Both the position numbers and the translations under genes were made by a program. Below the pieces are notes generated by a model. That model saw only the letters and a program-made list of their open reading frames with translations. It had not been told where the DNA came from and did not search any database. A stretch of DNA of 64,000 bases. Source: a phage. Position 1 is the first letter of the stretch. Each line of letters starts with the position of its first letter. The stretch is from the sequence record PZ534512.1; one strand, written 5' to 3'. Positions 38,320 through 39,144 of the stretch are shown piece after piece.

Positions 38320-38774
38320 TGGAATTTAAAGACTTTTCAACGGGTCTTTATGTAGCAGCTAAGTTTTCAGAATTAACACTTGATGCGCTGGAAGAACTCC
38401 AGCGCTCTTTACGTGTTCCTAATCCAGTTCCTAGAGAAAAAATTCATTCGACCATATGTTATTCAAGAGTAAATGTTCCGTATGTTCCATCAAGCGGAAG
38501 TTTTGAAGTAGCTTCTTCTGGACATTTAGAAGTATGGAAAACACAAGATGGATCGACTCTTGTACTTGTGCTAGATTCTGAATATCTGCGCTGTAGACAC
38601 ATGTATGCGCGGGCACTAGGTGCTACACATGATTTTGATGATTACACACCGCATATAACATTGTCTTATAATGTTGGACCCTTATCATTTAGCGGTGATG
38701 TACAAATTCCGGTCGTATTAGATCGTGAATATAAAGAGCCTCTTAAACTTGATTGGGCAGATGATTTAAAATAA
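38319..38774 (+). CDS. 57B: gp57B = Acb1-type anti-CBASS cyclic-oligonucleotide phosphodiesterase (151 aa)
   Basis: Position after 57A; two H-x-T/S motifs ([17 protein letters not shown]) typical of 2H phosphoesterases; T4 57B is the published Acb1. Confidence 0.8.
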
Positions 38775-38786
38775 TTTCACAAAGTT

Positions 38787-38816
38787 GTTTACATACTGAT
38801 GAGGTAGTGATACTAT
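38787..38816 (+). promoter_or_regulatory. T4-type early promoter (copy 1 of 33-bp repeat)
   Basis: GTTTAC (38787-38792), TACTAT (38811-38816); immediately after the 57B stop. Confidence 0.7.
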
Positions 38817-38846
38817 TATCTCATCAAAATTAATTAGGAAAATAAA

Positions 38847-39104
38847 ATGAAAACTTTCAAAGAGTTTGCTACAAAAACTGCTATCACTGAATCTTCTCAC
38901 GGTATGGAAGTAAAGCTTGGAATGGCTTTAGCTGAAGCTGAGCGTCTTTTCTCTCGTATTAAAGAACTTGCTGCTGCGGTCGATCCTTCGTCTTTTAAAG
39001 GAGACCAAACTAAAGTTAAAGCACTTTTAGCGTTATGCTCCGATGCAGGAGAAATTGCTAAAAATGGTTCTAAGATGAAGAAACGATTAGAAGATTTAAA
39101 ATAA
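38847..39104 (+). CDS. internal-protein-like small protein with capsid targeting sequence (IPI locus)
   Basis: N-terminus MKTFKEFATKTAITE resembles the T4 CTS (MKTYQEFIAE); sits at the ipI position after 57B behind its own early promoter. Confidence 0.6.
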   Translation: MKTFKEFATKTAITESSHGMEVKLGMALAEAERLFSRIKELAAAVDPSSFKGDQTKVKALLALCSDAGEIAKNGSKMKKRLEDLK

Positions 39105-39114
39105 TTTCACAAAG

Positions 39115-39144
39115 TTGTTTACATAGGGTTTTAGTTGTGATACT
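39115..39144 (+). promoter_or_regulatory. T4-type early promoter (copy 2 of 33-bp repeat)
   Basis: GTTTAC (39115-39120), TACTAT (39139-39144); immediately after the IPI-like stop. Confidence 0.7.

Follow-up and report, generated by a model that had tools for sequence, protein, structure and literature searches.

We analyzed a 64,000-nucleotide (nt) stretch of phage DNA (PZ534512.1; hereafter the window) and focus here on a small locus in which a single open reading frame (ORF) for an internal head protein, ip5, lies between genes 57B and trna.4 and is flanked by two copies of a 33-bp direct repeat. The window is from a Tequatrovirus: positions 38000-39800 are 99.9% identical to Escherichia phage AugustSocin, and this region matches 787 phage records, nearly all of which are Tequatrovirus or related T4-like phages. 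The gene order on the + strand is that of T4, i.e., gene 1 (deoxynucleoside monophosphate [dNMP] kinase; Pfam DNMK), 57A (Pfam GP57), 57B, the internal protein (IP) gene, trna.4, trna.3, trna.2, tRNAs, and segB; T4 carries ipI between 57B and trna.4. An earlier note on this DNA, made without database searches, had named the upstream ORF 57B, and both the T4 gene order and a match to Pfam Acb1 (E 2.6e-60) confirm that assignment. The downstream ORF is 100% identical to T4 trna.4 by tblastn.

The 33-mer GATTTAAAATAATTTCACAAAGTTGTTTACATA matches the + strand of the window exactly twice (Table 1), and no third copy occurs in the window at up to three mismatches. Its chance expectation is about zero (0 matches in 100 dinucleotide-preserving shuffles). 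The earlier note had pointed out this exact pair, which is real, but had placed it at 38762-38794 and 39094-39126, one base off. The note was right about what the copies contain: each joins the D-L-K-stop of one ORF (151 amino acids [aa] for copy 1, 85 aa for copy 2) to the -35 part of the early promoter that follows. TTTACA ends both copies and is followed, after a 17-nt spacer, by a TG-extended TACTAT. Similarity continues beyond the 33 bp, with 84% identity over 67 nt (38759-38825 versus 39089-39155), and the segments around the ribosome-binding site (RBS) and ATG are alike further 3′ (38829-38852 versus 39157-39180). In T4, an element identical to the one upstream of ip5 precedes ipI, while the element upstream of trna.4 lies 3′ of ipI. 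The record of phage Lutter annotates the ip5-upstream element as a promoter. No late promoter (TATAAATA) lies directly 5′ of ip5 or elsewhere within 37721-39476, so late expression of ip5 would need read-through or other signals.

Table 1. Features of the 57B-proximal IP locus and of the second IP locus in the window
Feature	Position	Strand	Description
57B (Acb1, anti-CBASS phosphodiesterase family)	38319-38774	+	Left flank, 151 aa; Pfam PF23474, E 2.6e-60; PHROG 755; position of T4 57B
Direct repeat copy 1	38763-38795	+	33 bp, exact; D-L-K-stop (57B), TTTCACAAAGTT, GTTTACATA (-35 region)
Early promoter-like site 5′ of ip5	38788-38816	+	T4 type; TTTACA-17-TG-extended TACTAT
Stem-loop 1	38797-38826	+	13-pair inverted repeat around -10 box; -14.8 kcal/mol, z -3.3 (second scan, z -5.7)
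ip5 (IpV)	38847-39104	+	85-aa internal head protein precursor; PHROG 3499 "internal head protein," E 3.3e-49 over residues 1-85
Direct repeat copy 2	39093-39125	+	33 bp, exact; D-L-K-stop of ip5 and -35 region of next promoter
Early promoter-like site 5′ of trna.4	39118-39146	+	T4 type; TTTACA-17-TG-extended TACTAT
Stem-loop 2	39123-39154	+	Arms ATAGGGT/ACCCTAT and inner helix around -10 box; -13.7 kcal/mol, z -2.3 (second scan, z -4.3)
trna.4 homologue	39175-39360	+	Right flank, 61-aa predicted membrane protein; PHROG 1692; tRNA.4 in GiZh annotation
Leader-bearing ORF, second IP locus	47032-47349		105 aa, MKTYQEFIAE...; no Pfam family
Leader-bearing ORF, second IP locus	47366-47839		157 aa, MKTYQEFITE...; Pfam DUF7412, E 6e-96

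We surveyed the slot in 36 IMG/VR loci fetched with a 57B query, together with T4, GiZh, Lutter, T6, and T2; slot counts cover the 34 loci for which both flanks (57B and trna.4) were found. The gap between 57B and trna.4 ranges from 83 to 1667 bp and holds zero to five cassettes, drawn from 13 unrelated cargo families. Phages whose flank proteins are 100% identical to those of the window carry ipI (T4), ip5 alone (the window and Lutter), ip5 plus ip6 (GiZh, T6, and survey locus L004), ip5 plus a 102-aa IP (T2), ip6 alone (L035), or the 102-aa IP alone (L034). This comparison, which the earlier note had proposed, thus reveals the expected alternative cargo between the same repeats, and because the cargo varies between identical flanks, the cassette is not invariant across related phages. 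In more distant relatives, many cassettes are stacked with 2-8 nt between ORFs and no hairpin. Slot content varies among phages irrespective of whether segB is present.

The boundaries between alleles are informative about how cassettes may be gained and lost. Recombination of the window's two 33-bp copies is predicted to delete 330 bp and to leave a single copy at the junction. We built this product in silico and searched for it; it was matched colinearly over all 401 nt by phages A6-6 (98.5%), PTE-Eco15, slur02/04/11/13, and 11B_SA_NWU. The annotation of these empty-slot phages has trna.4 directly after 57B, and alignment with the window shows exactly the predicted junction. In L035, the 57B end upstream of ip6 is followed by TTTCACAAAGTTGTTTACATA and then by a GGGTTTTAG-type remainder, as between ip5 and ip6 of T6. 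This element corresponds to the T6 ip5-ip6 promoter joined to the 57B end, which points to a precise loss of ip5 between repeats. The window's own downstream element, like that of T4, resembles the ip5-ip6 element in its 5′ part and the ip6-trna.4 element in its 3′ part, with the switch between the two falling in GTGATACTATTACCCTATC. T2 and L027 have chimeric promoters, in which the two stem arms derive from different parents, suggesting crossovers in the common GTGATACTATTA core. Some junctions are found in the -35 segment and others in the -10 segment, where homology is longest. Since they lie inside the promoter elements, the mobile unit would start with the 3′ half of one promoter, run through the RBS and the ORF with its stop, and end with the 5′ half of the promoter that follows.

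Both early promoter-like sites are overlapped by stem-loops, which differ from each other in stem sequence (Table 1). Across the 34 loci, 58 distinct intergenic slot elements have a median folding energy of -13.2 kcal/mol and a median z of -4.3, and their stem sequences vary. Other GTTTAC-type promoter-like sites in the window are mostly without a hairpin, the exceptions being those at 46948, 49974, and 54961. The latter two, which lie outside both IP loci, form hairpins over the -10 box (49974-50021, -13.1 kcal/mol, z -5.3; 54961-55008, -19.0 kcal/mol, z -6.6) and may be stem-loop promoter elements that flank other variable genes, similar to the promoter early stem-loops (PeSLs) discussed below. 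The stem-loops of the slot might contribute to recombination or to transcript processing.

Altogether, this suggests that the window holds the 57B-proximal IP locus of Tequatrovirus with a single cassette, ip5, that is exchangeable by recombination in its promoter repeats, a reading to which we assign a probability of roughly 0.85. At both sites, a predicted T4 early promoter (-35 GTTTAC plus -10) with an overlapping stem-loop lies in an element of ~70 bp; such elements border the ORF on both sides, and the indel and replacement junctions of relatives fall inside them. Crossover in these near-identical elements would be carried out by the very active homologous or short-homology recombination of the phage. 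Within one genome, it would delete or duplicate a cassette, and between co-infecting relatives, it would swap or add one, while each resulting array would keep a promoter before every gene. The end-points of such recombinants would be expected in the TTTCACAAAGTTGTTTACA or GTGATACTATTA segments. T4 recombines efficiently at homologies of 6-10 bp (PMC9391042), so a 33-bp perfect repeat would be an ample substrate.

The cargo is not new: Ip5 is a named allele of T2, T6, RB70, and ~270 sequenced phages. The name Ip5/IpV is given by several phage records and by UniRef (Ip5 of RB70, T2), and the GiZh record reads "RB15 T6 T2 RB70 Ip5 ... replaces ipI." The window protein is 98.8% identical to that of T6 and 97.6% identical to that of T2. 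Ip5 is found at an identity of at least 80% in ~270 phage records and IPI in ~280, and Ip5 is one of the two commonest alleles of the slot. As the earlier note had read from the translation, the ORF starts with an IP leader, MKTFKEFATKTAITE (38847-38891). Its residues 1-7, MKTFKEF, fit the consensus M-K-T-[YF]-x-E-F-[IL]-x-E, with which nearly all of the 57 cargo ORFs from the slot begin. The leaders of T4 target proteins to the capsid, residues 4 and 7 being critical, and are cleaved by gp21 after L/I-x-E (PMC9026906). Each T4 IP is reported at ~300 copies per head. The corresponding motif of Ip5 is I-T-E at residues 13-15 (17-19 in T4 IPI). In a divergent Ip5 (P0004/L016), a canonical 10-residue leader ending in TE is followed by the same SSHGMEV, which places the predicted mature N-terminus of Ip5 at Ser16 and leaves a predicted mature protein of 70 aa (7.5 kDa, isoelectric point [pI] 9.2). 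Ip5 thus has the leader, the gp21 motif, and the position between 57B and trna.4 that characterize T-even internal proteins. By analogy with these, it is probably a head-packaged protein that enters the host along with the DNA: the leader would bring it into the prohead, gp21 would trim it after the I-T-E that ends at residue 15, and the mature protein would leave with the genome. A truncated 50-aa variant (P0005), encoded on an ENA contig of 171 kb, matches the first 41 residues of Ip5 before it departs from that sequence and soon reaches a stop; this is suggestive of an allele of ip5 that is frameshifted or decaying.

Searches with Ip5 were less informative about what it does. No Pfam family was found, PADLOC returned no match, and a PDB sequence search gave a single match at chance level (E 0.82). 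AlphaFold2 predicts a two-helix hairpin (residues 17-44 and 54-84; pLDDT 72) from an alignment that is shallow because the homologue search gave only five near-identical clusters. Foldseek matches of this model in the PDB were generic helical hairpins and de novo designs, all at E > 0.001, and are uninformative on function; the literature searched held nothing relevant to the function of Ip5.

An Ip5 paralogue of 93 aa is found in 228 records at the other IP locus, beside the endolysin gene e, with 48% identity over residues 1-82; in phage HMD-9 (L040 1501-1782), for example, it overlaps the end of the endolysin gene. One cargo family thus occupies both IP loci and appears to have moved from one to the other. 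The HMD-9 paralogue has the same type of leader as Ip5 and differs from it in the C-terminal tail (...RLEKYISGASEK versus ...RLEDLK). The last homologous residues are ...RLE (up to residue 82), and the 33-bp repeat starts precisely there with D-L-K-stop. The cassette boundary may therefore reach into the coding sequence, in which case the 3′ end of 57B would have supplied the Ip5 tail; we give this idea moderate weight. Two observations call for caution, namely that the divergent Ip5 of L016 also ends in EDLK yet is followed by a different promoter and that the 57B homologues of more distant phages end in DLK too. The second IP locus of HMD-9 also has an endonuclease gene annotated between two IP genes. 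In the window, the second IP locus (46948-47839) directly follows endolysin e (46449-46943); its GTTTAC promoter hairpin has a z of -3.6, and its two leader-bearing ORFs (Table 1) lie 16 nt apart with no promoter between them. Their lengths of 105 and 157 aa differ from those of T4 ipII and ipIII (~100 and ~193 aa, respectively).

Nothing about the arrangement is new, and both the gene and the mechanism proposed here have likewise been described before. As relayed by later papers (PMC2839356, PMC4122927, and PMC12373910), Repoila et al. 1994 (EMBO J) described the arrangement of the T-even IP locus and its recombinational shuffling. So far as these accounts go, the window holds the same locus, with the same leader and with elements of ~70 bp, each an early promoter plus stem-loop, 5′ and 3′ of each ORF, and Ip5 is an allele named in that work according to the GiZh and UniRef annotation. 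There is no difference in kind from loci of that type: the window has a single ip5, T6 has ip5 plus ip6, and T2 has ip5 plus the 102-aa IP. Arbiol et al. 2010 (PMC2839356) put the number of known IP variants at more than 30.

The earlier note had also proposed cassette exchange at PeSL elements. Exchange is borne out by the junctions inside the repeats, but the elements of T-even IP loci are analogues, not homologues, of true PeSLs, with T4 early promoters and weaker, AT-rich stems (PMC2839356; repeated by Comeau et al. 2014, PMC4122927). The PeSLs of RB49/phi1, PST, and nt-1 likewise enclose small ORFs between promoter and hairpin repeats, with indels and replacements among close relatives. 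Those of RB49/phi1, however, have a sigma-70-like promoter and polyG/polyC stems, whereas the window stems are AT-rich (TGATGAGGTAGTG... and ATAGGGT...; -13 to -15 kcal/mol); the window elements lack the combination of sigma-70-like promoter and GC-rich stem that defines a PeSL sensu stricto. Integron cassettes resemble the IP slot in being arrays of small, promoter-dependent adaptive genes with hairpin-forming repeats and variable number and order. Unlike integrons, the IP slot has no integrase and no attC/attI, and every cassette brings its own promoter. Going by the sequences compared here, exchange of IP cassettes appears best explained by general homologous recombination.

Among individual IPs, Ip5 can be compared with T4 IPI/IPI*, an injected inhibitor of the type IV restriction enzyme GmrSD whose gene lies in this slot too and is bordered by the same promoter repeats. 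The IPI leader is of the same type, with a late I-T-E site (MKTFKEF...ITE), and mature IPI* (76 aa, pI 9.0) is close to Ip5 in size and charge. The similarity does not extend to the mature proteins: in agreement with the earlier note, which had described the cargo as different from T4 IPI, BLASTP similarity ends at residue 22, inside the leader, and Ip5 has no match to PF11634 (IPI_T4), which T4 IPI matches at 7.3e-54 in the same search. The predicted fold of Ip5 is an all-helical hairpin, and no IPI* entry is among the Foldseek PDB matches listed, all of which have E > 0.001. Silas et al. 2025 (PMC12373910) count "at least 10 reported" leader-bearing IPs and find that Ip1, Ip2, and Ip3 are inhibitors of GmrSD-type enzymes, each acting on a different one. 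Following the numbering of Repoila, we assume that the Ip5 of Silas et al. 2025 is the window protein.

Recombination in the repeats has to be weighed against other ways in which the slot could have come to vary. The repeat could simply reflect two early promoters of the same type kept alike by selection, with the cargo varying by other means. A motif of the form TTTCACAAA...GTTTACA does recur at 42500-42529 and 57698-57727 (77% identity to the repeat copies; 3 mismatches in a 19-nt core), as does the -10 sequence GATACTAT/GGTACTAT in several window promoters. Because the motif is common to a subset of early promoters, part of the repeat similarity reflects promoter function and not a role in recombination. 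Promoter function is an explanation for some, not all, of the identity: all 33 bp agree, including 12 coding bases outside the promoter, compared to only 77% at the other such promoters, while natural alleles have their junctions exactly inside the repeat and chimeric promoters have mismatched stem arms. These junction data already largely refute selection by itself, and we regard it as very improbable. Exchange could instead be driven from further downstream if the homing endonuclease SegB cuts the DNA of a relative and repair co-converts a long tract reaching across the IP slot, making the repeats incidental. T-even seg and mob endonucleases cause co-conversion of flanking markers, a segB-like gene lies 1.6 kb downstream of the slot, and some relatives are without segB there (GiZh has a Tyr-Asn-Arg tRNA run). 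Such repair should transfer whole donor tracts, yet we see single-cassette mosaics between 100% identical flanks, with junctions in promoter segments of ~20-30 bp, and slot differences that are independent of the segB state; a leading role for SegB is thus improbable. A dedicated site-specific mechanism acting on the stem-loops, comparable to that of integron cassettes or of PeSL mini-circles in RB49/phi1, would account for the strong enrichment of hairpins over the -10 box in the slot, where pairing is kept despite different stems, and for those junctions that fall in the -10/loop core; circular PeSL-ORF forms have been detected in RB49/phi1 (Arbiol et al. 2010, PMC2839356). Nevertheless, no recombinase was found associated with the locus among its ORFs or by Pfam and PHROG, the two junction places track the longest homology as homology-dependent exchange predicts, the stacked cassettes of distant relatives do without a hairpin, and T4 is able to recombine at the short homologies cited above. 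We therefore consider a site-specific system highly unlikely.

A further alternative concerns the cargo and leaves the exchange of cassettes in place. Ip5 could be a structural, basic protein of the head core that neutralizes DNA charge or aids core assembly, with near-neutral variation in the slot. A small, basic mature protein with a simple predicted helical hairpin would suit such a role, and IPIII has been linked to head morphogenesis (PMC9026906). Natural empty-slot phages show that ip5 is dispensable, and ip4-10 did not reproducibly inhibit the GmrSD variants that were tried (PMC12373910). On the other hand, each of the three T4 IPs to which a function has been assigned specifically inhibits type IV restriction, the fast turnover of 13 unrelated cargo families that share nothing but the leader is the pattern to be expected in an arms race, and the slot adjoins the anti-CBASS gene acb1. 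On balance, a purely structural Ip5 seems rather unlikely. In our main reading, Ip5, like T4 Ip1, Ip2, and Ip3, would disable a first-response defense of the host; that it is an injected inhibitor of such a defense outside the tested GmrSD variants, possibly one that is not of the GmrSD type, is an idea we put forward tentatively and with some doubt.

Several points weigh against the reading of ip5 as an exchangeable cassette for an injected anti-defense protein. Recombination is read from the sequences, and these do not give the direction, insertion or deletion, of each past event. As noted, the promoter motif also occurs at two sites away from the slot. The hairpins were tried as intrinsic terminators and rejected in that role, as they have no T-run and a terminator scan made no call. 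The anti-defense role of Ip5 rests on analogy, and alongside the GmrSD results for ip4-10, GmrSD-ECOR17 still restricts T2 and T6, two carriers of Ip5, when Ip3 is not provided (PMC12373910). The suggestion in the earlier note that the cargo may act on a different host nuclease is speculative. No report of Ip5 in virion proteomics was found in the literature searched.

The surroundings of the slot have some further features of note. The IP slot directly adjoins a known anti-defense gene, acb1 (57B), which many records still annotate as "RNA ligase" or "hypothetical." Downstream, a tRNA cluster (40130-41488) comprises eight genes, for Gln, Leu, Gly, Pro, Ser, Thr, and Met(CAT), then Arg, and is split by a GIY-YIG segB-like homing endonuclease gene (40743-41408). 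At the same place, GiZh lacks segB and instead has tRNA genes for Tyr and Asn, which is a second presence/absence polymorphism near the IP slot. Beyond the cluster, two copies of a GC-rich hairpin with a T-run, CTTAGCCCCGACCGAAAGGTTGGGGCTTTTT, lie 559 bp apart (41800-41835 and 42359-42394; 89% identical); they are terminator-like and might flank a small module 3′ of the tRNA/rnaC region. A second early-promoter-like family, TTTTCACAAAACGGTTTACA ... GGTACTATACAACTATCAACT, occurs without hairpins at 42500-42570, 57698-57768, 59845-59904, and 54170-54217 and possibly provides further substrates for short-homology recombination. In the late-gene part of the window, a whole-window repeat scan found a tandem duplication at 1995-2570 (288-nt unit, copies 75% identical).

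The locus is a textbook case of how T4-type phages keep a small, fast-changing set of injected proteins. The promoter repeats make the cassettes self-expressing and easily added, lost, or exchanged, which is thought to alter host range. If Ip5 does inhibit a host defense outside the tested GmrSD variants, the 57B-proximal slot beside acb1 would serve generally as a place where injected anti-defense proteins are swapped in. The target of Ip5 is worth finding because three other internal proteins each neutralize a specific type IV restriction enzyme; once found, it would add a defense/counter-defense pair that matters when T4-like phages are chosen for therapy.

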